Positions 1 to 21,032 of a stretch of 64,000 nt of DNA are shown in pieces. The first letter of the stretch is position 1, and the number at the start of each line of letters is the position of its first letter. The position numbers and the translations under genes were made by a program. This DNA comes from Thermoplasmata archaeon (lineage in GTDB: Archaea > Thermoplasmatota > Thermoplasmata > GCA-020350865). Location: the NCBI GenBank assembly GCA_020348445.1, contig CP070751.1, positions 4,812,506 through 4,876,505 on the forward strand, given 5' to 3'. The notes below the pieces were generated by a model, which did no database searches, was not told the origin of the DNA, and saw only the letters and a program-made list of their open reading frames with translations.

Positions 1-595
1 CAAGTGTGGCTTTACTGATGTTGACCTTTTGTGATAATTGCTCACTGTTTATCTTTTTGGGATAATCGAAATATCCATATTTCTTGGCAGCAATAAGGAC
101 TTCTCGTTGTTTATCTGTTAAAACGGAAAGAATATCATGCTCCTGATATGCCGCTTTTAGGAAGTTCATGTTAACGACATTTCCCATCTTCGTTCTCATC
201 AAATCAACGAACTTTAAAATTTCTTCTTGACTGCCTATACAGCTGTAGGTATGTTTCTCTTCTGTCATTATTATTGGCGTGGTATAAATCAAATCCATAC
301 CGAATTCTTTGAAAACATCTTTGAAATCCTCTGGTTCTACGATTCTAACGAGGCAAGCATGTTTATTACCCTCTGTTTTTAATACATTTAGTATCTCGTA
401 ATGACCTATTTTGTTCAAATCCTGAATATTTAAGCCCTCTTTTAAAACACAATCGGCTAAACATAACCGTTCTCCTTCGTTAAACTCATTCTTAAGCACC
501 TCCAAAACTTCAAAAGAATGAAGTTTTTTCCATAATGGCTTGAGTAATTTTGCCCAATTTTCATTTGGTTCTATTTCCAAGATCAGCTTTCTCAT
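1..595 (-). CDS. HTH_10 (bacterio-opsin-activator-type HTH) transcriptional regulator, copy 1, 3'-truncated by the window edge
   Basis: Not in the ORF track. Manual translation from ATG at 595 gives MRKLILEIEPNENWAKLLKPLW...LTDKQREVLIAAKKYGYFDYPKKINSEQLSQKVNISKATL, open to position 1 and clearly paralogous to the other five. Confidence 0.9.
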   Translation of the reverse strand, partial: MRKLILEIEPNENWAKLLKPLWKKLHSFEVLEVLKNEFNEGERLCLADCVLKEGLNIQDLNKIGHYEILNVLKTEGNKHACLVRIVEPEDFKDVFKEFGMDLIYTTPIIMTEEKHTYSCIGSQEEILKFVDLMRTKMGNVVNMNFLKAAYQEHDILSVLTDKQREVLIAAKKYGYFDYPKKINSEQLSQKVNISKATL

Positions 596-615
596 GGTTA
601 TCCGAATTAACTTCT

Positions 616-651
616 GGGTATTTAAACTACCGTACATACCAGGCTCAAATT
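616..651. promoter_or_regulatory. Conserved divergent-promoter/operator motif, copy 1
   Basis: GGGTATTTAAACTACCGTACATACCAGGCTCAAATT; begins 21 nt from the regulator ATG at 595. Confidence 0.75.
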
Positions 652-680
652 TTAACAAATCCATTTTACATATGGATTAA

Positions 681-1175
681 TTGATGAAAACGAAGGTTAG
701 AAAAATGGTAGCAGGAACTTCGATATTAAGGACTATTTATTATAGCATTATAGGTAAGCTCAGATTTCCAAAGAAATACATTGGAAAAACTGTTCGAATG
801 GAGGACGGATCAAACTATAAGATCTTCAGGCATATGAAGGCCAAACGAAAAAAGAAACTATCTACCGGAGCAATTTTTATTGTGCGTTTCAAGTTTAAGA
901 AATCTGATCATAAATCAAATATGAGAAAATCAAAAATTCCAATACCAATGATCGCTGGCTTTCCTGGTTTTAGGGAAAAATTATGGATGATCGATTATGG
1001 GACAGATTATTGGCAAGGGATGTATCAATTTGATAATACCTCAGAAATTGAAGATTACAAAAAATCTTTTGTGCTTGGTCTTATGAATAAGCGGGCTGTT
1101 AGAAGTACAATATCATATAGAACAATACCATATCTCAATCTTGAAGGTTTTTTGAATGGCATAATGACTGATTAA
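681..1175 (+). CDS. YdhR-like / ABM-type dimeric alpha-beta barrel protein
   Basis: C-terminal PGFREKLWMID...WQGMYQF...EDYKKS pattern resembles the YdhR putative monooxygenase family. Confidence 0.6.
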   Translation: MMKTKVRKMVAGTSILRTIYYSIIGKLRFPKKYIGKTVRMEDGSNYKIFRHMKAKRKKKLSTGAIFIVRFKFKKSDHKSNMRKSKIPIPMIAGFPGFREKLWMIDYGTDYWQGMYQFDNTSEIEDYKKSFVLGLMNKRAVRSTISYRTIPYLNLEGFLNGIMTD

Positions 1176-1239
1176 TTATTATGATAAATATAAAAGACAA
1201 ATGTGGATGAAATAAAAAATACAAAAAATGGTGATAAAT

Positions 1240-1980
1240 ATGGTTGAAAATAATATAGTTAAACAAACTAGAAAAGTTGAAGAACTTGAACAATTTGGCA
1301 AAACTCTCACAGGTCTTCCAAAAGAGACACTGAAGAAGCAAAAAGCTATTGTGATGCGCGAAATCCGAACGAAATATGGATTATTGGGCATACTACCTTT
1401 TTTTATCAAAGTTTCGCAGGAACAAAGAGCGTTAAAAAGGAAATATCCAGAAGCCTACCAGAAGGCGCTTCAATTGAGTGAAGATACAGCTAAGGAAATC
1501 ACTATGTTGATTGGAATGTTCAATGTTATTGCTAAAAAAGAAGGGAAAGAGAATGCATATGAGTTTGTAAAGAGTATCTTCCAAAAGGTTGCGGTTCACA
1601 GCATGCCAGCCCTTTACCAATTTAACGACCTTGTAAAATGTGAGGGCGACACTTTTGAAAACTTCATAAAATTCAACACTGCTTGGTTTAAAGCAATGAA
1701 TGAAGCGGGTACTTGGATAGTTGATGAACTTAAAGAAGAAAAAGACGAGCAGACAATAATAATAACGGAATGTGCAAACTGCGAACTCGGTAATGCTTTT
1801 AATTGTCCTGAAATAGCAAAACTTGGCTGTGATCACGATTTAGCCGGATTTCCTGTAATTCTTGATAAGGTTAATGCAGAATTCAGAAGGCCCCATACAA
1901 TTGCGAAGGGAGATGAGTACTGTGACTTTCATTTCTATCGAAAAGGTACAGCACCAGATACAGAACATTTAAATAAATAA
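1240..1980 (+). CDS. L-2-amino-thiazoline-4-carboxylate hydrolase-like (ATC_hydrolase family) protein
   Basis: ITECANC...IAKLGCDHD...FRRPHTIAKGDEYCDFHF signature; GGTGAT RBS before ATG 1240 (ORF track start 1228). Confidence 0.75.
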   Translation: MVENNIVKQTRKVEELEQFGKTLTGLPKETLKKQKAIVMREIRTKYGLLGILPFFIKVSQEQRALKRKYPEAYQKALQLSEDTAKEITMLIGMFNVIAKKEGKENAYEFVKSIFQKVAVHSMPALYQFNDLVKCEGDTFENFIKFNTAWFKAMNEAGTWIVDELKEEKDEQTIIITECANCELGNAFNCPEIAKLGCDHDLAGFPVILDKVNAEFRRPHTIAKGDEYCDFHFYRKGTAPDTEHLNK

Positions 1981-2001
1981 TATCAAAAAAAGGTGAATAA
2001 A

Positions 2002-2106
2002 ATGAATTCTGATATAAAAAGAAAATTAACCGCTCCGTGCGGATTGGACTGTTTCAATTGCGAAATTTATGGGAAAGCATCTGGGTATTTAAACTACCTG
2101 ATATAA
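2002..2106 (+). pseudogene. Truncated DUF3795-family gene (N-terminal fragment only)
   Basis: AGGTGAAT RBS, then MNSDIKRKLTAPCGLDCFNCEIY, matching LTAPCGLPCFECIVY of 2978..3532. It runs straight into the motif at 2083 and stops. Confidence 0.75.
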
Positions 2107-2180: not shown

Positions 2181-2417
2181 ACGGTGCTCTGTGTGAAACA
2201 TGTCAGGTCACACATTGACAATATGAAAAATAAGGAGGCAAAATAAATGAGTGATGAAAATAGGAATCCCAATTGGGAAAATCCAAATAGTGTCCTGGAA
2301 ATTGAGAGCAGCTGGATAAGGTTCCAGAGATCCGGAAGAGGCGATCCGATTCCGAGAATGATGAGGCAAAAAAGGAGTTCTAAAAGAATCCGATAAATGA
2401 TAAAAGAGGTGAATAAA

Positions 2418-2945
2418 ATGGAAGATAAAATCAAGAATGGAAAACTTTCCCTTGAGGTCACAACCACAGAAAACAGATGTCCAATAGGGGAAAAAGTGGG
2501 AAGTGGAAATGAAACTGAGGGTAAGATCCCGGTTATCTCATGCGAAGGAGGCTGTATCAGGGGCGAAATCGCGCGCCTTGCAGCCAACGCGGTGGCAAAG
2601 GAGGAGCCCTACAGACGCGGTTGCCATGGAGAGTTTCTAACCGTCCCCCACTCGAAAATCGCCCAGTGGATGAATAATTCGGAAAAGATAGTGCTCATTG
2701 ATGGATGTTTCCTTCGATGCCATGGCAGGATCTTGGAGAACATGATAGGGAAGGAGAGACTGGTTCAATTCGATGCCCTTTCCCACTACAAGAAATATAC
2801 CGATAAGTTCGATATCCATGAAGTACCAGAAGAAGAGCGGATTCAGGTGGCTGAGGATGTGGCTGACTGGATACTTGAAACTTTGAGCGGGAGAGAAATT
2901 GAAGACGGTCATACGTCAACCTTTCGAATGAATACCATACCTTGA
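2418..2945 (+). CDS. DGC-domain putative zinc-binding protein
   Basis: SCEGGCIRGEIARLAAN...C...IVLIDGCFLRCHGR; GAGGTG RBS before ATG 2418 (track start 2397). Confidence 0.8.
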   Translation: MEDKIKNGKLSLEVTTTENRCPIGEKVGSGNETEGKIPVISCEGGCIRGEIARLAANAVAKEEPYRRGCHGEFLTVPHSKIAQWMNNSEKIVLIDGCFLRCHGRILENMIGKERLVQFDALSHYKKYTDKFDIHEVPEEERIQVAEDVADWILETLSGREIEDGHTSTFRMNTIP

Positions 2946-2946
2946 A

Positions 2947-2980
2947 TTAGAAACCAAATCGTAAATAGATGATAAATATG
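2947..2980 (+). repeat. 34-bp direct repeat, copy B
   Basis: TTAGAAACCAAATCGTAAATAGATGATAAATATG. Confidence 0.85.
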
Positions 2981-3532
2981 GAAGAAAAAGATATGGATAT
3001 AAAAACAATAGAGAATAATAACGCTCCTCGCGATTCTGGGAACGGATCTGAATCAAAGACAGAAATATTGAATATGGTTCGAGAATATGGAAAAAAGGCT
3101 CGGGCTAAGGTATGGGAACAATCAATTGATTTCGAGAAACTTACGGCTCCGTGCGGGTTGCCCTGCTTTGAATGTATTGTATACCTTGCGGGCTATAGCG
3201 ATGAATTGAAAAAACTGGTTGCGACAGTGTTGCAGATACCTGAAGAGAATTGTGTCTGCCAAGGTTGCCGTGCAGAAAAAGGCATGTGCGGCCCTCTTCC
3301 GGTCAGCTGCCACGTCTATCCATGCGCTCAGGAAAAAAAAGTCCTTACATGTGGCGACTGTGAAGATTTTCCCTGCGACTATCTTCATCCCTATGCGGAC
3401 CAAGCCTTAAAGCCGCACAATACCAAGGTTTTCAACCTATGCCTGATCAAGAAAATGGGGCTAAAAAAATGGGCCGAAGAAAAAGCCGAGAAAGTAATAG
3501 ATACCTATCATTACGAGAAGTGGAGACTCTAA
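2978..3532 (+). CDS. DUF3795-family cysteine-rich protein
   Basis: APCGLPCFEC...CQGCR...C...CHVYPC...CGDCEDFPC cysteine pattern. Confidence 0.75.
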   Translation: MEEKDMDIKTIENNNAPRDSGNGSESKTEILNMVREYGKKARAKVWEQSIDFEKLTAPCGLPCFECIVYLAGYSDELKKLVATVLQIPEENCVCQGCRAEKGMCGPLPVSCHVYPCAQEKKVLTCGDCEDFPCDYLHPYADQALKPHNTKVFNLCLIKKMGLKKWAEEKAEKVIDTYHYEKWRL

Positions 3533-3629
3533 AAGCAATTAAATAACGGGGGAAAAAAAGAAAAATGATTCAATAATCATATCTGACAATATGGCACTAT
3601 ACAATTAATTAAGATAAGGGATTGATAAT

Positions 3630-4010
3630 ATGGAAGAAGAAAACGTTACTTGTGATAACTGCGGAGATTTAGTACGCAAAGAGTGGACCTTTGAAGACAA
3701 TAATGGTATAATCTGCGAAGATTGCTACATAGACAGAAAGCATACGATAAAAATTTGTGATCCATTAGCGGTTAATTCAGCAAAGAGATTTCGCGAACTT
3801 ACTGGGCAAAAAGGAACAGATGGTTTATCAGACCTTCAGAAACAAATATATGATCTTGTTCAATCGAAAGGAAAAGTGGAGCCTGATGAGCTCATCCAGA
3901 CCTTTAATCTATCAACCAAACAATTAGAGAATCAAATTGCAATATTAAGACATTGTGAACTTATAAAAGGAAAAAAAATGGACGGTGAGATATTCTTAGT
4001 GCCATTTTAG
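3630..4010 (+). CDS. Hypothetical protein: CxxC...CxxC zinc-ribbon plus winged-HTH-like C-terminus
   Basis: CDNC...CEDC...C, then LSDLQKQIYDLVQSKGKV...LENQIAILRHCELI; GGGGA RBS. Confidence 0.55.
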   Translation: MEEENVTCDNCGDLVRKEWTFEDNNGIICEDCYIDRKHTIKICDPLAVNSAKRFRELTGQKGTDGLSDLQKQIYDLVQSKGKVEPDELIQTFNLSTKQLENQIAILRHCELIKGKKMDGEIFLVPF

Positions 4011-4031: not shown

Positions 4032-4682
4032 TCAATACCCTGCCAATATATTTGCCAACAGGCGCTCTTCAGCTTTTCTCAGATGCTCGAGCAATGTGGC
4101 CTTCGAGATACCCACCTTGTTGGAGAGATCCTCGCTTGATATCTTCTTCGGTAAGTCATAGTATCCATTCTTTTTTGCAGCAATAAGGACTTCTCTTTGT
4201 TTGTCGGTTAAAACCGAAAGAATATCATGAGGCTGATATACTGCTTTCTGAAAGTGCATATTAACAACCTTACCGTATTTTTTGATTTTCTCAACAAATT
4301 TCATTAAATTTTCTTGATCACCAATACAACTGTAGATGCGTTTATCTTCTGCTACTGAAGAGGGTGTGGTCCAGATAAGATTTAATTTGAACTCAGTTAA
4401 CATTTGAGTGAACTCTTTTGGTACTTGGATCTTTACGACACATGTATGTTTCCTATTCTCGGATTTCAGAACACTCAGTATTTCCACATTATCTGGGATT
4501 TTTGCCTCGTGAATTGGTATGTTTCTTTTTGTATGACATTCCATTAAACCTATTTTTACGCCCTCTTCATAATCAATTCTCATCATCTCCAAGAGCTCGA
4601 AACGATGAAAGTTTTCAAATATGGGGCTCAGTAATTTTGCCCAATTCTCATTCGGTTCAATTTCAAGGATCAGCTTTCTCAT
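4032..4682 (-). CDS. HTH_10 transcriptional regulator, copy 2
   Basis: C-terminal LTDKQREVLIAAKKNGYYDLPKKISSEDLSNKVGISKATLLEHLRKAE signature. Confidence 0.92.
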   Translation of the reverse strand: MRKLILEIEPNENWAKLLSPIFENFHRFELLEMMRIDYEEGVKIGLMECHTKRNIPIHEAKIPDNVEILSVLKSENRKHTCVVKIQVPKEFTQMLTEFKLNLIWTTPSSVAEDKRIYSCIGDQENLMKFVEKIKKYGKVVNMHFQKAVYQPHDILSVLTDKQREVLIAAKKNGYYDLPKKISSEDLSNKVGISKATLLEHLRKAEERLLANILAGY

Positions 4683-4702
4683 GATAATCTGAATAAGTTT
4701 AT

Positions 4703-4738
4703 GAGTATTTAAACTGCCCTATATAATCGGCTCAAGCC
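4703..4738. promoter_or_regulatory. Conserved motif, copy 3
   Basis: GAGTATTTAAACTGCCCTATATAATCGGCTCAAG; 21 nt from ATG 4682. Confidence 0.75.
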
Positions 4739-4791
4739 TTAACAAAAACGGAGGACATATACTATAATTGAAGGAAAAGAAGGTGAGAAAA

Positions 4792-5034
4792 ATGACAACA
4801 TGGTTGAGAACACAAAAAAGTGTTGAAAATATTCTCTATGTTCTAGATTTTGAACCTTTCGTAGTAAATTATGGAAAACGATGTATGATTAATGCTTCTG
4901 AAGCTCGATTATCTGGTTTACAAAACTTTTTGTTGAAATCCGTAACGATTAGATATAACAACAGAAGCAAGAAAGGTGTTAATTTATCATTAAATTCACC
5001 GTCAATATCAGATAAAGTTGAAAGGACGGGATAA
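4792..5034 (+). CDS. Small hypothetical ORF (80 aa), possibly a gene remnant
   Basis: AAGGTGAG RBS before ATG 4792; no recognisable family. Confidence 0.3.
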   Translation: MTTWLRTQKSVENILYVLDFEPFVVNYGKRCMINASEARLSGLQNFLLKSVTIRYNNRSKKGVNLSLNSPSISDKVERTG

Positions 5035-5195
5035 AATAATGGTTAAGGGCAGAAGTATTTGGAAAAGAAGGAAAAGGTGGGGTAAAATTTGGTATTTGTT
5101 TAAGGAAATGAGCGAATGGTATGGACTGGATTGTTATTATCCATGGGAGAGGAAGAGGCTAAGTGAATCCCTATTCTGATAAGGAGGCAGTGAAA

Positions 5196-7103
5196 ATGAA
5201 AGAGATTCGTATTGGAAAAAATGTCAAGGATATTGATTTCAAATCACTAGAAATTGAGGATATTGGACCTGATCCAAATTTCCTTTTTCGCCCTCCTCAA
5301 TACTTTAATTCGAAATGGATATCAGAGAGAATTGATTATAAATTTAAGAGGATTGCTTATCTTGGAAATGGTCACTCGAGCAAGGTATATAAACTTCAGA
5401 ACACAAAAACAGGAGCTCTTTATGCTGAAAAAGTGAGAATTAGCAGTCAACTTGCAAAATCCGTTTATTCCATCTCCTTTCAGGCCCCGACTCCTGACAG
5501 GAATGAAGATGCTGTGAAGGCAGCCGTCTTAACAAGGAATTTACTTGCCATCCTCACCAAAAAATGGCGTGAAAGGGACGGGAGAATCCCATGTGTTGCT
5601 GATGCATTGGGATATAGATGGGATAATGAGGAAAAAACATACTCTATTATTACAGAATTTATTGATGGCCGAGGTCCTAAACCTCTTACAGATGAGATTT
5701 TCCAACTGACTAATCGTATGGACCTCCTTCAACCCTATCTTTTAGAAGCTGGACTTTATGGACCAGCATGGCAGATCGATAAGAGTAACATGACCTCAAC
5801 TGCAAATTTCAGATACAGTGAGGAGGAGGGGATATGGTATTGGATAGACTCTGAACCGGGCATGGTAGCATTAAAGCTTGGCCCTAAGAAAAAATATATC
5901 TCTGAGGCTAAGAAAGCCGGATTTATACCGCTATTTGCCGATATAGATTTTCTCAGATTGAGAGAATATGTAAAAAAGGAGAGGATAACAGGTGTGGACA
6001 ACATAATTGATTTGCTTGAACAAAGCATGAATGAATGGAAGCAAAGCGAGATAGCCATTTATAGAAATAGAAATATCCATTCGAAAAAAGTAAAGAAATG
6101 GTATATTCGGAACTGGCGATATGAGAGAAAGTTATCTAAAAGAACAGAAAATATGTTAATTAAAAACAACCTTGCGTTTCTTTTATATCTTATATTTGGT
6201 AGACTCGCTAGTTTTAGTCTCAATTCCGAATACAGAGTGAAAAGGATTGAAGATTTCTTTAGAAAATTGGAGAATGAGGATGTTATACCCAAAGGGTATC
6301 GAAAACACTTTGTTTTAAATTACTTTCTTAAAAAGCTCTGTCCAAAAACCATTCATCATTATTTGGTGAATAGATCATTTCGACGTTATATTAATAAGGG
6401 AATTATAAATCGAAATCACAGAATCCATATCGCAAAAGACTACATTGACAATGGAATTGGGGAATGGGAGAAATCAAAAAGGCTCACAAAGAATGAGGCT
6501 AAAGCAATAAGAAAAGAAATTGATGATCAAGTAACAATGGATGTTTATCTGACAGGATTCAGCGTCCATCTGTTATTTAAAGGTTTGACTGTTGTAGGAG
6601 ACCTCTTAGCAATAATTAACATTCTAGGGACATCTGGACTTAAATTTCTCGAACCCCTGACATTAGAATTCCTTCTAATTGATGGCTTGCCGTGGCCATT
6701 AAATGCCATTGGTCCATTATTAATCGGTCCGATTCTACGGATTAGTTATGTATTGTATAGTAAAATACGATGCATTATAGAAGGAAGAAAGGTACCACAC
6801 TCAATTGCAGCTATATTCTCCTTCGGTAAGTTTGGGATAGGGACCATGGCCTTTCCTGCTCAAATGATGTTTTCTGAAAACAAATTCACCATGGAATATC
6901 TACTCTCAAAAATGGGAAAGAAGATCCCCATATTTGGAGGGACCGATAGTCGAATCGAACATTGGTTTATACGAGGGGCAAATATGAAAAACTCCATTGT
7001 ATCCTTCAAAATCAAGATCTCGAATTCAGTTAAATTTGGTCCTTTCAGAAGACCTCCTGTACCGGTGAAGGATGATCAAAAACCAATAGAAGTTAGGGCG
7101 TGA
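5196..7103 (+). CDS. Large hypothetical protein with an N-terminal protein-kinase-like region and a hydrophobic C-terminal region
   Basis: LGNGHSSKVYK (Gly-rich loop), YAEK (VAIK-like Lys), IITEFIDG (hinge-like), WIDSEP (DFG-like); AAGGAGG RBS before ATG 5196. Confidence 0.6.
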   Translation: MKEIRIGKNVKDIDFKSLEIEDIGPDPNFLFRPPQYFNSKWISERIDYKFKRIAYLGNGHSSKVYKLQNTKTGALYAEKVRISSQLAKSVYSISFQAPTPDRNEDAVKAAVLTRNLLAILTKKWRERDGRIPCVADALGYRWDNEEKTYSIITEFIDGRGPKPLTDEIFQLTNRMDLLQPYLLEAGLYGPAWQIDKSNMTSTANFRYSEEEGIWYWIDSEPGMVALKLGPKKKYISEAKKAGFIPLFADIDFLRLREYVKKERITGVDNIIDLLEQSMNEWKQSEIAIYRNRNIHSKKVKKWYIRNWRYERKLSKRTENMLIKNNLAFLLYLIFGRLASFSLNSEYRVKRIEDFFRKLENEDVIPKGYRKHFVLNYFLKKLCPKTIHHYLVNRSFRRYINKGIINRNHRIHIAKDYIDNGIGEWEKSKRLTKNEAKAIRKEIDDQVTMDVYLTGFSVHLLFKGLTVVGDLLAIINILGTSGLKFLEPLTLEFLLIDGLPWPLNAIGPLLIGPILRISYVLYSKIRCIIEGRKVPHSIAAIFSFGKFGIGTMAFPAQMMFSENKFTMEYLLSKMGKKIPIFGGTDSRIEHWFIRGANMKNSIVSFKIKISNSVKFGPFRRPPVPVKDDQKPIEVRA

Positions 7104-7939: not shown

Positions 7940-7946
7940 GGACTAC

Positions 7947-10878: not shown

Positions 10879-10920
10879 TTTTGTATTTTAATGACCATAT
10901 GATGATTTTATACCATAAGG

Positions 10921-13723: not shown

Positions 13724-14686
13724 ATGAAAGCAATTGTATGCACAAAATACGGACCTCCAGAGGTCCTTCAGCTGAAGGAGGTAGAAAAACCCACTCCCAA
13801 GAAAAATGAAATTCGTATTAAGATCCATGCGACCACAGCCACATCAAGTGATTGCATTCTCCGGGGTTTCAACATACCAGCGTGGCACCCAGTGGGACTT
13901 ATGATGGGAATTATGATGGGCTTTGGAAAACCAAGGAACCCCATCCTCGGTTTGGTAGCGGCTGGAGAAGTCGATTCTATGGGAAGTGATGCAAAACGTT
14001 TTAAAATAGGTGATCCAGTTGTTGCCTATACCGCCTTATCACCCACCAAGATCCGATTAGGCACATATGCCCAGTACAATTGTATCCCGGAAGATTGGTT
14101 AGTGGTGCGGAAACCGTCTAATTTAACCTATGAGGAGGCCGCTGCAATCCCCTATCCTGGAGAGCTTGCGATGTTCTTTTTGAAGAAGGGGGATTTCAAA
14201 AATCGGAAGAATGTTCTTATTGTGGGTGCTTCCGGATCCATCGGTACCACTGCAGTGCAGCTTACTAGGCACTTCGGGGCCAATGTGACAGGGGTCTGCA
14301 GTACTTCAAATTTGGAGCTGGTAAGGTCCTTAGGAGCCAAAGAGGTCATCGACTACACAAAAGAGGACTATTCGAAACGCAGTGAGCGATATGATATGAT
14401 ACTGGATGCCGTTCCACAGCAGGTTGCGGATAGGAAAAGATTGAAATCTCAAGCCCAAAACGCACTTACTCCTGATGGGAAGTATGTCTCAATAGATGAT
14501 GGTATAGCCAAGACAAGCTATGAGGATCTTGTTCTAATAATGGACCTTGCGAAGTCTGGTGAGTTCAAACCGGTGATAGACAAAAGCTATCAGCTGGAGC
14601 AGATGGTTGAGGCCCACAGATATGTCGAGACTGGACACAAAAAGGGAAATGTGGTAATAACTGTTAAACAAAACAAAAAAACCTAA
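13724..14686 (+). CDS. Zinc-independent MDR oxidoreductase, copy 2 (subtype b)
   Basis: Same fold motifs; SDCI.RGF and GTTAVQL subtype markers. Confidence 0.92.
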   Translation: MKAIVCTKYGPPEVLQLKEVEKPTPKKNEIRIKIHATTATSSDCILRGFNIPAWHPVGLMMGIMMGFGKPRNPILGLVAAGEVDSMGSDAKRFKIGDPVVAYTALSPTKIRLGTYAQYNCIPEDWLVVRKPSNLTYEEAAAIPYPGELAMFFLKKGDFKNRKNVLIVGASGSIGTTAVQLTRHFGANVTGVCSTSNLELVRSLGAKEVIDYTKEDYSKRSERYDMILDAVPQQVADRKRLKSQAQNALTPDGKYVSIDDGIAKTSYEDLVLIMDLAKSGEFKPVIDKSYQLEQMVEAHRYVETGHKKGNVVITVKQNKKT

Positions 14687-14698
14687 CAAAGTATTGCA
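14681..14698 (+). repeat. Conserved MDR 3' tail ACCTAACAAAGTATTGCA
   Basis: ACCTAAC spans the stop codon; near-identical to 42343..42360. Confidence 0.6.
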
Positions 14699-15299
14699 AA
14701 TAATTAGGGATATGCTGAGTATGAATGCGCTTGAAAGCTGGTTTTCTAAACGAGTAGAGGAGCAATTAAAAGACCTAGCTAGCAAAGTCAGTAGCCATCT
14801 GCGCGTGGCCATCGCCGCTGTGGTTGTTTTAATTCTTATTGTGTTGTACTACATAGCTCATCAATTATCGTCAACAGGTTTTTTTACTGATAAGTTCGGA
14901 CCTTTTGAGATGCTCTTTCTATATGGATCTCTTATTGAATGGATTGTTGTAGCTACATTGGAAGTGTTTGGTCGCAAAGACCTCTCTCGAGATATTGATG
15001 CTTTTGGTGGAATTATTTTTGTCACTATTGGAGGTGCTTGGCTCTTTGTGGTATTTCCCTTTGAATTTGTATATTTTGCTGACATGTTACCAGATTCCCT
15101 CAGATTTCTGTTGCAGTGGATTTCCAACGACATTGCTAAAGTGATAATATTGCTGTGGACCATCTTTCATCTGGTTGCTGCAGTTTATTATGGAATATTG
15201 CGCGTGTTCGTTCGCAAGGCGCGCGCTTTGGAGTCTACCTCAATAGATATAAACGAAGATTTAATACCAGAACAAAGTAATCTTGGAGAATTACCATGA
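14694..15299 (+). CDS. Membrane hypothetical protein
   Basis: About four hydrophobic segments; ATGA overlap with the next MDR gene; start codon uncertain. Confidence 0.65.
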   Translation: MQIIRDMLSMNALESWFSKRVEEQLKDLASKVSSHLRVAIAAVVVLILIVLYYIAHQLSSTGFFTDKFGPFEMLFLYGSLIEWIVVATLEVFGRKDLSRDIDAFGGIIFVTIGGAWLFVVFPFEFVYFADMLPDSLRFLLQWISNDIAKVIILLWTIFHLVAAVYYGILRVFVRKARALESTSIDINEDLIPEQSNLGELP

Positions 15300-16261
15300 A
15301 AGCTATGGTATTTGAAAAATACGGTCAACCAGATGTTCTTCAGCTTAAAGAAGTGGAGAAACCCACTCCCAAGGACGATGAAGTCATGGTAAAGGTCCTC
15401 GCGGCATCTGTAAATGATTGGGACTGGGGTGTCCTGAGAGGCAAGCCACTAGTTAACAGGCTTATATTTGGGCTTACAAGACCAAAAAAAAGTAACATAC
15501 TGGGATGTGACATAGCAGGAAAGGTGGAATCTGTAGAAAAAAATGTAACGAAGTTCAAGCCGGGAGATGAAGTGTTCGGGGACCTTTCCGAGGGTAGTTG
15601 GGGCGGTTATGCCGAGTATGTGTGTGCATCTGAGAATGAATTGGTTCCAAAACCAGCTAAAATGACATTCGAGGAGGCAGCAGCTGTTCCCCAAGTGGGA
15701 TCTATGGTTGTCAAGGGCCTGCTGGATATGGGAAATGTAAAACCTGGACAAAGGGTTTTGTTCAATGGCGCAGGTGGTGGTGTGGGTACATTGGGTGTGC
15801 AGATTGCCAAATCGCTTGGGGCTCATGTGACAGGAGTGGATAAAGCAAGTAAATTGGACATACTACTAAAACTTGGGGCAGACGAGGTAATTGATTACAA
15901 AAAAGAAGATTTCACAAAAAACAGGAAGCAATATGACCTGATTCTTGATGTTATGGTAAACCGTTCAATGTTCGCTTATAAACGTGCACTCAGTCCCAAT
16001 GGAATTTATCTCATGATGGGTGGCTCTATACCTCGAATATTTCTGATTGCTATAGTCTCACCATTGATCATAAGGGGTAAGAAATTGAAAATCTTAGCAT
16101 TGAATCCTAATAAGGGTTTAGATGTATTTTCCGAGCTCTTTGAGGCAGGCAAGGTAAAGCCTGTAATAGATAGAACTTACCCCTTAAGTGAGCTGCCCGA
16201 AGCTCTGGAGTATTTTGGAGAATCGCACCACAAGGGGAAAATAATAATTAAAATTGTATAA
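15296..16261 (+). CDS. Zinc-independent MDR oxidoreductase, copy 3 (subtype c)
   Basis: AASVN.WD, NGAGGGVG, YPLSELPEAL.YF.E.HHKGK. Confidence 0.92.
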   Translation: MKAMVFEKYGQPDVLQLKEVEKPTPKDDEVMVKVLAASVNDWDWGVLRGKPLVNRLIFGLTRPKKSNILGCDIAGKVESVEKNVTKFKPGDEVFGDLSEGSWGGYAEYVCASENELVPKPAKMTFEEAAAVPQVGSMVVKGLLDMGNVKPGQRVLFNGAGGGVGTLGVQIAKSLGAHVTGVDKASKLDILLKLGADEVIDYKKEDFTKNRKQYDLILDVMVNRSMFAYKRALSPNGIYLMMGGSIPRIFLIAIVSPLIIRGKKLKILALNPNKGLDVFSELFEAGKVKPVIDRTYPLSELPEALEYFGESHHKGKIIIKIV

Positions 16262-16277: not shown

Positions 16278-16934
16278 TCAGGAATATCCGGCCATTATAT
16301 CGTCAAGTATTCTTCCCTCGGCTTTTCTCAAATGCTGCATCAGTGTGGCTTTACTGACGTTGACCTTTTTTGATAACTGTTCGCTATTGATTTTTTTAGG
16401 GTAGTTATAATATCCGAACTTGTATGCAGCAACAAGAACCTCTCTTTGTTTGTCAGTTAAAATCGAAAGAATATCCTGCCTTTGGTAAGCTGCCTTTTTG
16501 AATGACATATTCAATATTTTACTGCCCTCTTTTCTAAATATCTCGACCAATTTAGTAAGATTTTCATTTTCGCCTATGCAACTATATGTGACTTTTTTTT
16601 CTGAAATTATTGTGGGAGTTGTACTAATTAAATCTAGATCTAGTTCTCTGAAAGAATCCATTTTATCCTCGGTTTCAAAGTATTTAACAAGACATGTATG
16701 TTTATTACCCTCGGATTTTATAACACTCAGTATTTCCATTTTCCCTATGGATTTTATATCATCAATAGATAAATCCTCTTTTAATATACATTCGATCAGA
16801 TCTACACATATTCCTTCCTCATAGTCGATCTTCAGCGCCTCCAAAATCTCATAAGAATGGACCTTTTCAAACATTGGCTTTAGTTCCTCTCTACCCTTTT
16901 CATCCAATTCTATTTCGATGGTCAATTTTCTCAT
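16278..16934 (-). CDS. HTH_10 transcriptional regulator, copy 5
   Basis: LTDKQREVLVAAYKFGYY...KATLMQHLRKAE. Confidence 0.92.
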   Translation of the reverse strand: MRKLTIEIELDEKGREELKPMFEKVHSYEILEALKIDYEEGICVDLIECILKEDLSIDDIKSIGKMEILSVIKSEGNKHTCLVKYFETEDKMDSFRELDLDLISTTPTIISEKKVTYSCIGENENLTKLVEIFRKEGSKILNMSFKKAAYQRQDILSILTDKQREVLVAAYKFGYYNYPKKINSEQLSKKVNVSKATLMQHLRKAEGRILDDIMAGYS

Positions 16935-16959
16935 TATATCATCTACAGAATCAACTTCT

Positions 16960-16995
16960 GGGTATATAAACTATCATACATGTACGGCTCAAATT
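16960..16995. promoter_or_regulatory. Conserved motif, copy 7
   Basis: GGGTATATAAACTATCATACATGTACGGCTCAAATT; 26 nt from ATG 16934; one mismatch to copy 9. Confidence 0.78.
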
Positions 16996-17038
16996 CCTTG
17001 TATTTTCTAGAGCATACACTAAATTAAGGGTGATCAAG

Positions 17039-17170
17039 ATGGAACAAAAACCGAAAAACAAAATCGGCGGATGGATTCCTGGATGGAATCTTCATCGTGT
17101 CTTTGAAAGTGAGAAAGTGGAATACCACCTGAATGGTTGGTCATTTGCAAAACCGAAAATAGCAGTATGA
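17039..17170 (+). CDS. Small ORF (43 aa)
   Basis: GGTGAT RBS; MEQKPKNKIGGWIPGWNLHRVFESEKVEYHLNGWSFAKPKIAV. Confidence 0.4.
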   Translation: MEQKPKNKIGGWIPGWNLHRVFESEKVEYHLNGWSFAKPKIAV

Positions 17171-17236
17171 AACAGGGACAATGATTTCTAGTAGGTGAAC
17201 ATTATGGTAAAGAACGAAGTGAAAGTAAGTGAGGAT

Positions 17237-18139
17237 ATGAAAGCTATTGTATGTGAAAAATTCGGACCACCGGAAGTTCTTAAGCTAAAAGAGGTTCCAA
17301 AACCCACACCCAAGGACAATGAGATATTGGTAAAAATCCATGCAGGAACTGTAACACGAGGGGACCTGCACTTGCGAGGTGCCAATCTTGGGATCAGGTT
17401 CCTCATGCTGATTCTTGGATACAAACAAAAGAAAATAACGGGTCACGAGTTGGCAGGGGAGGTTGAAGCTGTGGGTAAGGACGTTAAAAAGTTCAAAAAA
17501 GGTGACCATGTTTTTGGAACCTCCACTGGATTGATTACCGGTGGTAATGCCGAGTTCATATGTCTGCCTGAAGAATGGAAGAAAGGAGTGGTAGCAACAA
17601 AACCAGCAAACATAACCTTTGAAGAAGCCGCTGCTGTTCCTATCGGTGGAATGACCGCATTACACCTTCTTAGAAAAGGAAATATCCAAAAGGGGCAAAA
17701 GGTCCTTGTATATGGTGCTTCCGGAAGCGTGGGTTCGTACGCAGTTCAGCTGGCAAAGCACTTGGGGGCGGAAGTAACCGGTGTTTGCAGCACCTCGAAT
17801 CTGGAAATGGTGAAGTCCCTGGGAGCGGATTCGGTAATTGATTACAAAAAAGAGGATTTCACAAAAAGCGATCAAAAATATAATTTGATCTTCGATGCTG
17901 TTGGTAAGATTCCCCGTTCAAAAAGAAAAAGGTCGCTTGCCCAAAACGGGTGTTATATATCCATTATGTCCTTAACAACCGAAACCACTGAAAAACTGAT
18001 TTATCTCAAAAAGCTTGTGGAGGCGGGAGAACTAAAAGCGGCTATAGACAGGAGTTATCTATTGGAACAGACGGCTGAGGCCCACAGATATGTTGAAAAG
18101 GGACACAAAAAGGGAAATGTGGTGATCAAAGTTAGATGA
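17237..18139 (+). CDS. Zinc-independent MDR oxidoreductase, copy 4 (subtype d)
   Basis: [27 protein letters not shown]; start aligned at MKAIV (track start 17195). Confidence 0.92.
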
Positions 18140-18159
18140 ATATGGAAGGAGATAGATAA

Positions 18160-18360
18160 TTGACCAATAAGGAAGATAATGAGAGACAAAATCGGTTGAG
18201 AGAGATCGAAGATAGAAAGATAGAGATCCTATTGGAAATCCCCAATGTTAAAGAGAATACTGAAAAGATATCTGAACTTAACTCTGAATATGTACAATTG
18301 GGTGACGAATATTATAATTTGAAAATTGAATTGATAAAGGCAAAATCACAATCAAATTGA
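18160..18360 (+). CDS. Small charged helical hypothetical protein
   Basis: 66 aa, TTG start after a GGAGA RBS. Confidence 0.45.
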   Translation: MTNKEDNERQNRLREIEDRKIEILLEIPNVKENTEKISELNSEYVQLGDEYYNLKIELIKAKSQSN

Positions 18361-18446
18361 AGGATGCTATTTACCACTAATTGCTAATCAAAGATCATTG
18401 AGATTTTAAAAAATAATATATAAATGTATTATAATAAGGCAGTTCT

Positions 18447-19964
18447 ATGAAAAAATCCATAATTATCATAGGAGCTGGAGTTGCAGGCCTATCTGCAGGA
18501 TGCTATGGGCAGATGAACGGCTATAATACTCAAATTTTCGAGATGCACACCTTGCCTGGCGGTGTTTGCACTACCTGGAAACGCAAGGGCTACAAAATAG
18601 ACGGCTGTATTCACTGGCTAACTGGTATTAAACCCGAAACTGATTTCTATCAGATATGGGAAGAATTGGGTGTATTACCCAACAGTAACATAATCGAACA
18701 CGAAGAGTACGCCCGGATTGAAGGAAAGGATGGCAAAGTTTTTATTGTCTACTCTGACATCGATCGACTGGAACAGCATATGAAGGAGCTTGCTCCCGAG
18801 GATAAGGATTTGATTGAGGACTTTTGCAATGGAATTCGAAAGATGATGGATTTTCACATACCCTGGGAAAAGGCAGCCGATCTATTCGGTCCATTAGATG
18901 TAATCAAATTAATGAAAAGTATGATCCCCTTTGGAGGGATCTTTCGAAAGTGGGGCAATAAAACAATCCAGGATGTTGCCCAGCGCTTTAAAAATCCATT
19001 CATGCGGGAGGCTTTTCCCTATATATTTAACCTCGAAAACCCGCCTGAATTCCCAATATTGGCTGTAATGAAGACTTTTGCATGGATGAACCAGAAAACA
19101 ATTGGCTATCCCATAGGAGGCTCCTTAGAGCTCGCTCGAGTTATAGAGCAGCGTTATCTTTCTTTGGGTGGTAAGATTAACTATAAGTCACGGGTTGTAA
19201 AGATCTTGGTAGAAAATAACAAGGCAGTGGGTGTGCGGCTGGCTGATGGAAGTGAGCACCGTGCTAACATCGTCGTCTCTGCAGCTGATGGTCGTACCAC
19301 CATTTTTGATATGCTGGATGGTAAGTATATCAATAAAAAGGTCAGGGGTTATTATGAAAAACTCGGTCTCTTTGCACCGTTGATTTATATAGGTCTGGGT
19401 GTAAACCACCCGTATGAAGAGATACCGTCAACAGTAACAGGGATAAATTTTCCCTTCGATAAACCCATCAAGATTGGAGAGAGGGAACGGAACCACTTAA
19501 GTGTACAGTTTTATACCTTTGATCCTACCTTGGCCCCTGAGGGCAAGACATTTGTGAGAGTCCATTTTCCCTCAGATTATGACTACTGGGAAAAACTAAA
19601 GAAGGACTCAAAGCTCTACAAAGCCGAAAAGGAGAAGATTGCACAAAAAGTGATTGCCCAACTTGATGCACGTTTTCCAGGATTTGCCGCTGATGTAGAG
19701 ATGCATGATGTGGCAACACCAATGACCTGGGTACGCTACACAGGTAACTGGCGGGGCAGTTTTGAGGGTTGGATAGAAACACCAAAGACAATGAGGATGC
19801 GTATGAGTCAAATGCTGCCTGGTCTTTCTAACTTCTATATGGCAGGGCAATGGGTTCAACCAGGGGGCAGCATCCCCGCCGTGGCAGTGTCGGGTCGAAA
19901 TGCTGTTCAAATAATTTGTAAAAAGGACAAGAAGGAGTTTATGACATCTAAGCCAGCAAAATAA
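18447..19964 (+). CDS. FAD-dependent oxidoreductase, phytoene-desaturase (CrtI)-like superfamily
   Basis: IIGAGVAGL...E....GG..T.W.RKGY.ID dinucleotide-binding N-terminus; C-terminal NFYMAGQWVQPGG. Confidence 0.85.
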   Translation: MKKSIIIIGAGVAGLSAGCYGQMNGYNTQIFEMHTLPGGVCTTWKRKGYKIDGCIHWLTGIKPETDFYQIWEELGVLPNSNIIEHEEYARIEGKDGKVFIVYSDIDRLEQHMKELAPEDKDLIEDFCNGIRKMMDFHIPWEKAADLFGPLDVIKLMKSMIPFGGIFRKWGNKTIQDVAQRFKNPFMREAFPYIFNLENPPEFPILAVMKTFAWMNQKTIGYPIGGSLELARVIEQRYLSLGGKINYKSRVVKILVENNKAVGVRLADGSEHRANIVVSAADGRTTIFDMLDGKYINKKVRGYYEKLGLFAPLIYIGLGVNHPYEEIPSTVTGINFPFDKPIKIGERERNHLSVQFYTFDPTLAPEGKTFVRVHFPSDYDYWEKLKKDSKLYKAEKEKIAQKVIAQLDARFPGFAADVEMHDVATPMTWVRYTGNWRGSFEGWIETPKTMRMRMSQMLPGLSNFYMAGQWVQPGGSIPAVAVSGRNAVQIICKKDKKEFMTSKPAK

Positions 19965-19976
19965 TACTTGTTACCA

Positions 19977-20639
19977 TCATTCTGACAAATACCCTGCAAA
20001 TATATTAGCCATGAGCCGTCCTTCCGCTTTTCTCATGTGCTGAACTAATGTTGCCTTACTTAAATTGACCTTTTTGGCTAATTGTTCGCTATTGATCTTC
20101 TTGGGATAATCATAATATCCATGCTTGTTGGCTGCAATGAGGATATCCCTTTGTTTGTCAGTTAAAATCGATATAATATCCTGCTTTTGGTATACTGCCT
20201 TTTTGAATGACATATTTGTAATCGTGCCTCCATATTTTTTTACCAGTTCTACAAATTTGGTAAGGTTCTCATTCTCACCTATATATGATACTGTACATTT
20301 ATCTTCTGTAACTATACTTGGTGTTGATAATATTAAATCGAGGTCAAATTCTTTGAATAACTCCATAGACTCTTCCTCTTCAAAGTATTTTATCAGGCAG
20401 GTGTGTGTATTGCCCTCGGATTTTAAAACGCTCATAATTTCCATTTTGCCTATGGATTTCACATCATCAATGGATATGCCCTCTTTTAATTGCACTTCGA
20501 TGAGATCCACACATAATCCTTCTTCGTAGTTACACTTCAACATATCCAAGATCTGATAAGAGTGGATTTTTTCAAATATAGGTTTTTGCGCTTCTTTTAC
20601 CGTCTCATAGGGTTTGAATTCCAGAATTAACTTTCTCAT
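19977..20639 (-). CDS. HTH_10 transcriptional regulator, copy 6
   Basis: LTDKQRDILIAANKHGYY...KATLVQHMRKAE. Confidence 0.92.
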   Translation of the reverse strand: MRKLILEFKPYETVKEAQKPIFEKIHSYQILDMLKCNYEEGLCVDLIEVQLKEGISIDDVKSIGKMEIMSVLKSEGNTHTCLIKYFEEEESMELFKEFDLDLILSTPSIVTEDKCTVSYIGENENLTKFVELVKKYGGTITNMSFKKAVYQKQDIISILTDKQRDILIAANKHGYYDYPKKINSEQLAKKVNLSKATLVQHMRKAEGRLMANIFAGYLSE

Positions 20640-20659
20640 GGGTATCCAAATGAGGTATA

Positions 20660-20675
20660 GGGTATTTAAACTGCT
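20660..20675. promoter_or_regulatory. Conserved motif, copy 8 (left, TATA-containing half only)
   Basis: GGGTATTTAAACTGC; 21 nt from ATG 20639; the right half is absent. Confidence 0.65.
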
Positions 20676-20950
20676 TGTTTAGGTCATTTCGGGCCATTTC
20701 AGAGGTAGGGGATACAATCTAGATTGCTCTTTATGTATAGTGTGTATATAGTTATTAGATGGTTTGCAGCCGATTTTCAAGGGATTTTCACCTTTTTTTC
20801 AAATAAGTTTGAAATTTCAATATATAAACCCGGGCGCAATAGCCTCAAATAGTGATAAAAATGAGAGAATTTGAGCATATATCGCCCCCTCAAAATGCCC
20901 TTGAAAATGAGAAATTCACAAGAATTTTGCCCGGATTTCAAAAAACGTCT

Positions 20951-20986
20951 GGGTATATAAACTATCATATATGTACGGCTCAAATT
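20951..20986. promoter_or_regulatory. Conserved motif, copy 9 (upstream of the ABC operon)
   Basis: GGGTATATAAACTATCATATATGTACGGCTCAAATT. Confidence 0.78.
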
Positions 20987-21032
20987 TTGAATATTTTTCT
21001 GATTATACTCTGAATTAGAATATGGTGATCAA

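Follow-up and report, generated by a model that had tools for sequence, protein, structure and literature searches.

The window analysed here, a 64-kb stretch of DNA from an uncultured sediment archaeon of the Thermoplasmata, contains six paralogous HTH_10 regulators at positions 2-20639, all on the minus strand and head to tail, each with plus-strand cargo genes divergent from it. The question raised by this locus is whether a single regulator-plus-promoter module was amplified locally and its copies reloaded with different cargo, as the initial annotation had proposed, or whether the array has another history. We conclude that the locus is an unusually dense stack of ordinary regulator-operon pairs. 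The modules are 2857-4748 bp long, with tail-to-tail gaps of 21, 95, 50, 16, and 12 bp between successive modules; both the lengths and the 12-95 bp range of the gaps agree with what had been claimed. The regulators are as follows.

2..595, minus strand: regulator 1, 198 of ~217 aa, 3' end cut at base 1; HTH_10 E 6e-14
4032..4682, minus strand: regulator 2, 216 aa; HTH_10 E 1e-20
8777..9430, minus strand: regulator 3, 217 aa; HTH_10 E 1.4e-17
11634..12287, minus strand: regulator 4, 217 aa; HTH_10 E 2.5e-20
16278..16934, minus strand: regulator 5, 218 aa; HTH_10 E 5e-21; protein modelled
19977..20639, minus strand: regulator 6, 220 aa; HTH_10 E 1.5e-18

Integrity of the assembled array

The source record is a MAG whose contigs were concatenated via 100-N spacers (completeness 81.7%, contamination 3.8%). 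Base 1 of the window is the first base of its contig, with a 100-N spacer immediately to the left; regulator 1 is therefore truncated by the assembly and not by biology, and its missing 3' end was found on contig L002, which overlaps the start of the window by 99 nt. The left end of the window is a fork in the assembly graph, with this 99-nt overlap shared with two contigs, which suggests that the array extends leftwards. A seventh paralog probably lies on a contig overlapping this end.

The origin in a concatenated, partly contaminated MAG, the fork at the left end, a contig of bacterial type adjoining the window in the record, and alternative joints present in the Logan contigs are all features that would be expected if the array were an assembly or binning artefact, with paralogs of several strains or loci stitched through shared sequence. 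We nevertheless hold such an artefact to be extremely improbable, and an assembly chimera is an unlikely source of the array. The 64 kb contain zero N, and the longest exact repeat in positions 1-26000 is only 29 bp. Logan contigs from a sediment-metagenome run span 9555-13426 and 15180-17588 with zero mismatches, joining regulators 4 and 5 each to both neighbours, and a second run from the same study also covers this stretch, which no RNA run contains. Read depth is even (~30x and ~7x in the two runs), and a closed relative has a partly syntenic stretch carrying two tandem regulators.

The regulator family

The six regulators share a conserved MRK start and can be aligned over their entire length, with pairwise identities of 50-67%. 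Pfam HTH_10 (PF04967) was matched at the C-terminus of all six with 52-74.6 bits, the gathering score being 23.1 bits, such that their identification in the initial annotation as six minus-strand HTH_10 paralogs with these starts was borne out (E 6e-14 to 5e-21). The same domain was matched in 106 of 106 aligned relatives, and full-length relatives of ~215 aa are widespread, with 382 representative clusters at E <= 1e-10. Among the six regulators of the array, the recognition helix (SKATLxxHLRKAE) hardly varies.

The N-terminal residues 1-150 matched no Pfam family at E <= 0.01 in any of the 106 members; weak ALS_ss_C matches were seen in 2 of the 106. In an AlphaFold2 model of regulator 5 (pLDDT 91.7), the C-terminal part resembles sigma region 4 (Z ~8.5), i.e., a sigma-region-4/LuxR-like fold, and the best structural match overall to the N-domain is Ta1207 (Z 8.6 over 132 residues). 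Comparisons of the N-domain by VIA-align with the NikR C-domain, a GcvR-like protein, and the AHAS small subunit gave Z 6.5-7.5 over 58-63 residues, so that all fold matches of this domain are middling (Z below 9), a Foldseek search returned nothing at E <= 1e-3, and Atlas leads to BAT and HVO_*_N clusters were weak (scores of 0.76-0.81). The fold prediction that the initial annotation had suggested for this domain points to the N-terminal ~150 aa probably being an ACT/ferredoxin-like domain, a putative sensor. It has diverged more than the HTH, with a mean identity among the six of 49% (range 42-65%) vs. 76%.

Cargo of the six modules

The plus-strand genes facing the regulators are listed here, where MDR stands for medium-chain dehydrogenase/reductase.

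705-1175, plus strand: ydhR-like gene with an SD-linked ATG (module 1; Pfam)
1228-1980, plus strand: ATC_hydrolase (module 1; Pfam)
2002..2106, plus strand: truncated 5' fragment of a DUF3795 gene, ending where a solo cassette starts
2397..4010, plus strand: DGC-domain protein, intact DUF3795, and small Cys-rich/HTH-like 126-aa protein, behind the solo cassette (Pfam)
4792..8681, plus strand: 80-aa ORF, 635-aa protein, 276-aa protein, and PAP2 phosphatase (module 2)
9517..10746, plus strand: 44-aa SD-linked ORF and two ArsP_1-type half-permeases (module 3)
10933..11583, plus strand: DUF998 membrane protein (Pfam E 2.7e-23)
12483..16261, plus strand: MDR1, MDR2, 195-aa membrane protein, and MDR3 (module 4; Pfam)
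17039..19964, plus strand: 43-aa SD-linked ORF, MDR4, and CrtI-like flavin oxidoreductase (module 5)
21033..24755, plus strand: MacB/LolD-type ABC ATPase and 963-aa FtsX/MacB_PCD permease (module 6)

The cargo families named in the initial annotation were recovered, but its description of each module as carrying different cargo does not hold, as modules 4 and 5 both contain MDR genes (four in all), and ten MDR paralogs are present in the 64-kb window. MDR3 is of the PIG3-like quinone oxidoreductase type, its best NCBIfam match, TIGR02824, scoring below that family's cutoff. In module 2, the 635-aa protein, originally described as kinase-like, has no Pfam or NCBIfam match, and no family was assigned to the 276-aa protein. 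The island continues to ~41 kb, where additional MDR genes, genes of the DUF4386 and DUF6326-like types, and another ABC/FtsX pair are found.

A promoter cassette accompanies the regulators

Between regulators and cargo lies a cassette with the core consensus ggTATtTAAAcTAcc-atAcATGtat-GGCtCAAatt and weaker conservation for ~25 nt beyond. Its elements are, in order, a near-palindromic TATA box, a 14-bp palindrome, CCATACATGTATGG, which is the consensus of 39 non-identical copies, and GGCTCAA, ~24.5 nt past the TATA centre. The window holds nine copies, all on the plus strand and all within the array; a pattern scan at <=3 mismatches gave 15 matches where 3.1 were expected. The regulator-plus-promoter unit assumed in the initial annotation does exist, in that six copies lie at a fixed distance from a regulator ATG (21 nt, or 26 nt for regulator 5) and three are solo copies before cargo.

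615..653, plus strand: copy 1, 21 nt from the regulator 1 ATG; 0 mismatches, PWM 45.5 bits
2075..2150, plus strand: copy 2, solo, no regulator beside it; pattern and PWM matches
4702..4740, plus strand: copy 3, 21 nt from the regulator 2 ATG; 1 mismatch, PWM 39.5 bits
9450..9488, plus strand: copy 4, 21 nt from the regulator 3 ATG; pattern and PWM matches
10842..10880, plus strand: copy 5, solo, before DUF998; 0 mismatches, PWM 39.9 bits
12307..12345, plus strand: copy 6, 21 nt from the regulator 4 ATG; 2 mismatches, below the PWM threshold
16959..16997, plus strand: copy 7, 26 nt from the regulator 5 ATG; nearest to consensus, PWM 52.7 bits
20659..20697, plus strand: copy 8, 21 nt from the regulator 6 ATG; TATA part kept
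20950..20988, plus strand: copy 9, solo, before the ABC exporter; pattern and PWM matches

The central positions of the palindrome vary between copies. Copy 6 is degenerate past the TATA box, and the regulator-proximal copies at 12307 and 20659 have both lost the palindrome and GGCTCAA. Copy 8 is followed by ~290 bp of non-coding DNA in which no gene remnants were detectable.

Archaeal TATA boxes centre ~26 nt upstream of the start site. With the geometry of the cassette, the cargo mRNA would have its initiator and start site at GGCTCAA, the palindrome would be a candidate operator at about -17 to -4 from that predicted start, and copy 1 would be the promoter of the ydhR-like gene. On the other side, the regulator ATG lies mostly at one of two distances from the TATA centre, 25.5-28.5 nt in 18 of 39 cases and 32.5-34.5 nt in 16 of 39.

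The cassette also follows the regulator family beyond the window. All nine perfect copies found genome-wide are within 4.1 kb of a family regulator, and a PWM scan of 520 kb gave matches solely at family regulators or as solo copies nearby. At least 15 other genomes or contigs, drawn from several families of Thermoplasmata, have the same cassette upstream of a family regulator, and in closed relatives it occurs only beside its regulator. This distribution bears on a rival reading, namely that the cassette is a mere strong core promoter (BRE, TATA, and initiator) inherited with its genes and unbound by these regulators, which would then act elsewhere or via other sites. Its TATA box is canonical and at the right distance from a pyrimidine-purine step, and its conservation extends into the 5' leader, as that reading would have it. 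However, a generic promoter would be expected at many genes, whereas in every genome examined the cassette keeps to the vicinity of this family, and no copy with <=2 mismatches occurs in the remaining 43 kb of the window; core promoter function also has no need of a 14-bp perfect-consensus palindrome. As such, we regard a mere core promoter as very improbable.

Re-use of the cassette

The solo cassette at 2075-2150 is identical in 74 of 76 nt (97.4%) to a cassette on contig L003, and the two have different flanks: a regulator on one side and a 4-oxalocrotonate tautomerase on the other in L003, and the DUF3795 fragment upstream and the DGC block downstream in the array. The fragment, KLTAPCGLDCFNCEIY, matches the intact DUF3795 (2969-3532; blastp E 8e-8), and the DUF3795 gene is cut off by the solo cassette. 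These sequence comparisons support re-use of the cassette by copying in front of new genes. The remaining copies are only 60-81% identical in pairwise comparisons and are therefore old, not recent; the closest of these is copy 9, which is 81% identical over 74 nt to the copy of regulator 5.

Promoter re-use in prokaryotes has been described as putative mobile promoters (Nijveen, Matus-Garcia, van Passel 2012; PMC3575422), defined as upstream non-coding sequences of ~92% identity or more over 50 bp or more before non-homologous genes. The 2075-2150 and L003 pair falls within this definition, and other pairs, at 60-81%, do not. As in that study, near-identical non-coding DNA precedes non-homologous genes here, with one copy interrupting a gene. 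In contrast to those promoters, the re-used promoter carries the predicted operator of a regulator family and travels beside that regulator.

Ancestry of the regulators

A tree of the six regulators with their homologs, as the initial annotation had called for, did not return one clade. A topology uniting the six was rejected by the AU test (p 3.3e-7, with a delta lnL of 341), and 170 of the 229 tree rows fall into the smallest clade enclosing them. For each of the six, sequences from other samples, 71-78% identical to it, are well-supported sisters. On this phylogeny the six are ancient paralogs; other organisms have orthologs of each, and in this genome they were either assembled or retained side by side. 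Recent local amplification is largely refuted, as the six form no single clade and each has closer relatives in other samples.

The initial annotation had named two patterns in related genomes that would speak against it, and each was found in part. Regulators are scattered in relatives, with 1-3 per genome in 24 of 401 genomes of the class, and a closed genome of the same genus has two copies 1.27 Mb apart. Several pairings with cargo are also conserved: regulators of the 5/6 type recur with DUF6326-MDR-MDR, ABC ATPase partners and a 646-aa protein recur as well, and in the same-genus genome a protein 65% identical to the 635-aa one is encoded divergently from a family regulator. The cargo kinds near regulators elsewhere are DUF4386/DUF6326 membrane proteins, MDRs, ABC ATPases, and MMPL/RND transporters.

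With six or seven pairs stacked head to tail, each regulator is also the convergent neighbour of the preceding operon. In other genomes CrtI or an MDR recurs as the convergent neighbour of a regulator, the regulator often being conserved next to a convergent MDR, and the regulator 1 ortholog of the same-genus genome has a cassette only on the operon converging on it. The assignment of cargo to regulator is therefore ambiguous.

Taken as a whole, amplification of one module with reloading of its copies into an independent inducible bank is improbable. It would account for the head-to-tail order, the fixed regulator-cassette spacing, the copying of the cassette before different genes, the presence of at least 8-10 family regulators in the source genome vs. 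1-3 elsewhere, and the cargo of modules 1-3, which has no counterpart beside regulators elsewhere except the 646-aa protein. Set against this are the rejected single clade with closer relatives in other samples, N-domains sharing only the identities given above, MDR, ABC, CrtI, and DUF6326 partners conserved across genomes, and a near-invariant recognition helix, which speaks against independent units. Of the original claim, re-use of the cassette stands (a 97.4% copy with different flanks), and the local burst does not.

Predicted mode of regulation

The account that we favour, with moderate confidence, is that of a dense stack of local one-component regulator-operon pairs formed by ancient paralogs, with predicted ligand-released repression and a cassette that has been copied onward. 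Repression is the usual effect of archaeal factors bound between TATA box and start site, and the candidate operator lying between the TATA box and the predicted start suggests that these are ligand-released repressors of export and quinone-reductase-type genes. A regulator dimer would bind the palindrome and block recruitment of RNA polymerase; the N-domain would take a small ligand, the regulator would be released, and the adjacent export, membrane-protein, and NAD(P)H-oxidoreductase genes would be switched on. Transcription of the regulator would also depend on this TATA box but run the other way, giving an mRNA with no leader or almost none. The repressor sign is suggested by a single feature, the operator position. 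Bat, the only well-studied HTH_10 protein, is an activator, and the family regulators may therefore activate instead.

Because the recognition helix is near-invariant and the operator cores resemble one another, the array may not amount to six independent switches, and cross-talk or a shared regulon among the six regulators is possible. In its full form, such sharing would make the array a multi-input sensor bank with one DNA specificity, feeding one export/oxidoreductase regulon and possibly consisting of Bat-like activators. The greater conservation of the HTH than of the sensor domain, an operator consensus common to all modules and to other genomes, the ABC promoter copy at 20950 being closer to the regulator 5 copy than to that of regulator 6, and the recurrence of related cargo families across modules are all in keeping with it. 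However, the varying central positions of the palindrome could confer specificity, the restriction of the cassette to its own regulator in closed relatives is as in dedicated local control, and an operator in this position is unusual for an activator. We consider the shared regulon unlikely on balance.

Returning to local control by adjacent pairs, we also entertain, tentatively and as something short of probable, that the cassette is a portable regulated archaeal promoter with a bidirectional TATA box, copied onto new genes. A leaderless regulator mRNA would be made one way and an operator-gated cargo mRNA the other, and copying of the whole unit or of the cassette alone would amount to promoter propagation in an archaeon. 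With one recognition helix kept and the sensor domains diverged, the result would therefore be a multi-ligand sensor bank on one operator code.

Comparison with known systems

The Bat-type/HTH_10 regulators of Halobacteria share the C-terminal HTH_10 with the present Thermoplasmata family, and both are archaeal one-component regulators. In contrast to the Bat-type proteins, which have a GAF/PAS sensor and a BAT domain (PF15915) before HTH_10, the present regulators are only ~217 aa long and lack these domains; Bat activates, whereas the operator position here suggests repression. That position is the same as for the archaeal MDR1, Phr, and TrmB-type repressors, which bind between the TATA box and the start site, although the protein family is unrelated and the likeness is one of inferred geometry.

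TetR-, MarR-, and LysR-type divergons likewise have a regulator divergent from its target operon, a short control region, and a palindromic operator, with efflux or detoxification cargo; here the cargo is exporters and oxidoreductases, and the cassette is found only beside the regulator family. The present system differs from them in its fold family and its archaeal TATA/TFB promoter logic, and one near-palindromic TATA box may serve both directions. The Msr proteins of Methanosarcina, described as ArsR-family (bioRxiv 10.1101/2025.05.05.652248), are also paralogous archaeal regulators adjoining operons that they control. The present proteins fall outside that group: their best domain is HTH_10, with HTH_5 (ArsR) just a weak secondary match in 20 of 106 members, and they come from another archaeal class. 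With divergent regulator/operon pairs and promoter re-use (PMC3575422) both known, the earlier statement that no description of this architecture exists was overstated.

Significance for Thermoplasmata

What is new is the conserved promoter/candidate-operator cassette that accompanies this regulator family across Thermoplasmata genomes. To our knowledge, operators have been established for only a few transcription factors of archaea, and for almost none beyond model halophiles, methanogens, and thermophiles. For a widespread, uncharacterised ACT-like plus HTH_10 architecture, a candidate binding site can here be given precisely, together with its spacing from TATA box and predicted start site, and nine natural site variants together with six protein variants provide material for gel shifts, footprints, and in vitro transcription. 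The locus is also a concrete archaeal case of promoter re-use, and it lends itself to testing whether two divergent genes can be served by one TATA box. Its cargo of ten quinone-reductase-like MDRs, small membrane proteins, and MacB-/MMPL-type exporters would indicate that sediment Thermoplasmata have a large inducible system with which they handle compounds that are hydrophobic or electrophilic.

The regulator array and its cargo

The initial annotation had described six paralogous HTH_10 regulators on the minus strand at the left end of the window, and this was borne out by both the ORF listing and Pfam, which places HTH_10 at the C-terminus of each protein. The six regulators can be aligned in full from a common MRK start and share 50-67% identity, and the modules of the array, each pairing a regulator with a divergent plus-strand cargo operon, measure 2857-4748 bp. 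The regulators are listed here with three solo copies, i.e., copies adjoining no regulator, of a conserved intergenic cassette.

Regulators and solo cassettes of the array
2-595, minus strand, regulator 1 (Pfam HTH_10, C-terminal)
4032-4682, minus strand, regulator 2 (Pfam HTH_10, C-terminal)
8777-9430, minus strand, regulator 3 (Pfam HTH_10, C-terminal)
11634-12287, minus strand, regulator 4 (Pfam HTH_10, C-terminal)
16278-16934, minus strand, regulator 5 (Pfam HTH_10, C-terminal)
19977-20639, minus strand, regulator 6 (Pfam HTH_10, C-terminal)
2083, plus strand, solo cassette (pattern match)
10843, plus strand, solo cassette before DUF998 (pattern match)
20951, plus strand, solo cassette before the ABC exporter (pattern match)

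The short tail-to-tail gaps between each regulator and the preceding cargo stop were likewise confirmed, at 21, 95, 50, 16, and 12 bp, and comparison of these junctions found no shared conserved sequence. The cargo families proposed earlier agree with ours, except that the 635-aa protein called kinase-like has no match among Pfam or NCBIfam families. An Rfam search of window positions 1-26000 returned no match at E ≤ 0.1. At the end of module 1 (3630-4010, plus strand) lies a 126-aa protein whose N-terminus has a CxxC...CxxC motif (weakly matching DUF7573) and whose C-terminus is weakly HTH-like; it may be a second small regulator.

Integrity and left end of the array

The source MAG (5.16 Mb, 81.7% completeness, 3.8% contamination) consists of contigs, many of about 1.2 kb, concatenated with 100-N spacers; such spacers lie at 13325-13424 and 15407-15506 of the compared locus L001, and locus L003 contains ten 100-N runs. 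The source names of homologs put the organism in Thermoplasmata, under the label 'Methanomassiliicoccales archaeon'. To the extent that it can be tested, the array is no assembly chimera. The window contains no N, exact repeats in 1-26000 reach at most 29 bp, and Logan contigs with zero mismatch span 9555-13426 and 15180-17588. The window DNA is present in two sediment-metagenome runs of one study, with even read depth in both and coverage holes in run X1 at 6.0-9.3 kb.

Base 1 of the window is the first base of its contig, and regulator 1 is therefore cut by the assembly. The first 99 nt of the window, within the conserved HTH coding region, are an exact overlap with 9111-9209 of locus L002 and with 5757-5855 of L003, such that the right end of L002 overlaps both the window start and the start of the 1.2-kb contig in L003. 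This overlap of one contig end with two contigs marks an assembly-graph fork, implying two strains or two loci. In L002, one strand bears a cassette followed by genes for an MMPL transporter and a 305-aa protein, and a regulator gene converges on them; next come another cassette, DUF4386, MDR (medium-chain dehydrogenase/reductase), and GNAT genes, and finally the 3' end that regulator 1 lacks in the window. Because L002 carries this further regulator along with the missing end, the array probably holds at least seven. The contig to the left of the window is unrelated; its genes for a TonB-dependent receptor beta-barrel and a YfiR/HmsC-like protein are of bacterial type, although the bin is archaeal.

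A conserved cassette accompanies the regulators

A repeat search revealed a conserved intergenic element, the cassette, which is new in this analysis. Its pattern, GGGTATWTAAACTRYC, has nine matches with at most 2 mismatches, all on the plus strand and within the array, and none in the remaining 43 kb of the window; at up to 3 mismatches, 15 were found versus 3.1 expected. Six copies begin 21 nt from a regulator ATG (26 nt for regulator 5). By alignment, conservation extends over ~75-100 nt, up to a GGTGA Shine-Dalgarno sequence and the cargo ATG.

Alignment of 39 non-identical copies gives the consensus ggTATtTAAAcTAcc-atA.ATg.at-GGCtCAAatt, in which a TATA box is followed by the palindrome CCATACATGTATGG and then by GGCTCAA. 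The TATA centre lies 24.5 nt from the A of GGCTCAA, as is usual in archaea between TATA box and start site. Its distance to the regulator ATG clusters at 25.5-28.5 nt in 18 cases and at 32.5-34.5 nt in 16, which would fit a single TATA box serving both directions, with the regulator mRNA leaderless or bearing a short leader.

The cassette accompanies the regulator family wherever we searched. Across the MAG, none of the nine perfect copies is more than 4.1 kb from a family regulator, and the matches from a position weight matrix scan of 520 kb were confined to regulators and nearby solo copies. The closed relatives carry it only beside family regulators: bin983 has four copies and three regulators, and the same-genus genome two strong copies and two regulators. 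Family regulators of further Thermoplasmata genomes and of metagenome contigs also have it upstream.

The cassette has been re-used in new gene surroundings. The solo copy at 2075-2150 is 97.4% identical to a cassette in L003 with unrelated flanks: the L003 copy has a regulator 1-like gene on one side and a 4-oxalocrotonate tautomerase on the other, while a DUF3795 5' fragment at 2002-2106 of the window ends at the start of the solo cassette. The gaps behind cassettes 7 and 8, and the other non-coding gaps, contained no gene remnants. Directly behind cassettes 4 and 7, upstream of the first annotated cargo gene of their modules, are two small Shine-Dalgarno-linked ORFs, one of 44 aa (9517-9651, plus strand) and one of 43 aa (17039-17170, plus strand). 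Neither resembles DUF6326, and they could be either leader peptides or fortuitous ORFs.

Predicted structure of the regulators

An AlphaFold2 model built from a 106-row alignment (pLDDT 91.7) has a C-terminal region, residues 151-218, similar to sigma-70 region 4 and LuxR-type HTH domains (Z ~8.5). For residues 1-149 the best match is to the C-terminal half of Thermoplasma Ta1207, with 132 residues aligned at Z 8.6, followed by ACT/ferredoxin-like regulatory domains at Z 6.5-7.5. Foldseek of the model against the PDB gave no match at E ≤ 1e-3, PDB sequence searches with one protein and with the 106-row profile gave no meaningful match, none of the 106 relatives has a Pfam family assigned to its N-domain, and NCBIfam had no name for the regulators. 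Full-length relatives are abundant, with 382 representative clusters at E ≤ 1e-10. Among the six regulators, mean identity is 49% in the N-domain and 76% in the HTH, and the recognition helix SKATLxxHLRKAE is close to invariant. A homodimer prediction scored 0.29 against a mark of 0.42, which counts neither for nor against a dimer. An Msr-family assignment was abandoned, as Msr proteins are described as ArsR-family (bioRxiv 10.1101/2025.05.05.652248), and HdrR was ruled out as a relative, being an unrelated N-terminal winged-helix protein. Our literature search found no description of this HTH_10 subfamily or its operator, and none of Ta1207.

Ancestry of the regulators and their partner genes

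The initial annotation had proposed that a regulator-plus-promoter module was amplified and reloaded with different cargo. Trees of homologs gathered by two queries and one profile speak against a recent amplification: the six regulators are not one clade, and the smallest clade with all six holds 170 of 229 rows. On a 53-row tree, the AU test rejected their monophyly (delta lnL 341, p 3.3e-7), and every one of the six groups, with good support, with sequences of other samples: the same-genus ortholog for regulator 1 (73% identity) and, for instance, homologs P0277/P0279 for regulator 4, P0003/P0004/P0008 for regulator 5, and P0005 for regulator 6. In a sample of 401 genomes of the class, 24 have the family, at 1-3 copies each, versus at least eight in this MAG. 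Metagenome contigs of 49.5, 15.8, 14.5, and 7.7 kb appear to carry two paralogs apiece, judging from equal sizes.

The synteny survey was small, as the genome and metagenome scans gave 7 and 15 loci. DUF6326-MDR-MDR operons diverge from regulator 5/6-type regulators in other genomes, where DUF4386 membrane proteins, ABC ATPases, and an MMPL transporter operon are also recurrent partners, as is, in the same-genus genome, a homolog of the 646-aa protein. Elsewhere the convergent neighbour of the regulator is CrtI (81% identity) or an MDR3-like gene, at eleven loci. In loci of other genomes, an MDR lies tail-to-tail with a regulator, as MDR3 (the PIG3-like gene of module 4) does with regulator 5, at L007, L009, L018, L019, L027, L028, L030, L031, L032, L035, and L036, and in L031 this convergent MDR has its own solo cassette. 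Synteny with bin983 is partial, comprising FtsX-ABC, a cassette, MDR-MDR-DUF4386, two tandem regulators, and a convergent CrtI. Together, the trees and the recurrent partner genes show that the modules are old and the cargo classes not arbitrary.

The surrounding gene island

The plus-strand island runs on beyond the array to ~41 kb with six more MDRs, three DUF4386 genes, DUF6326-like and DUF4760 genes, and a second ABC/FtsX pair; cassettes are absent from all of these. In all, ten paralogous MDRs occupy less than 30 kb (12483-40667, plus strand), interleaved with small membrane proteins, including DUF998 and a 195-aa protein of no family, and two MacB-type ABC/FtsX pairs. These MDRs are closest to PIG3-type NAD(P)H quinone oxidoreductases, yet fall below the family cutoff. 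At the island's right edge is a radical SAM protein (43148-44389, plus strand); GC climbs from ~0.40 to ~0.49 at ~45 kb, and a giant ORF exceeding 6200 aa (45393-64000, minus strand) continues beyond the window.

Probable regulatory logic of the array

The best-supported reading of these sequences is that the array stacks local one-component regulators, which would act on a common type of promoter-operator cassette. The regulators would most likely be ligand-released repressors of export and oxidoreductase genes, and the candidate target of each is ambiguous between the divergent and the convergent neighbouring operon. Divergent regulator-operon pairs and promoter re-use are known (PMC3575422), and the array follows this ordinary regulatory logic. 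What is unusual is a regulator family without prior study and its dense stacking, as would be, if true, a single TATA box serving both directions.
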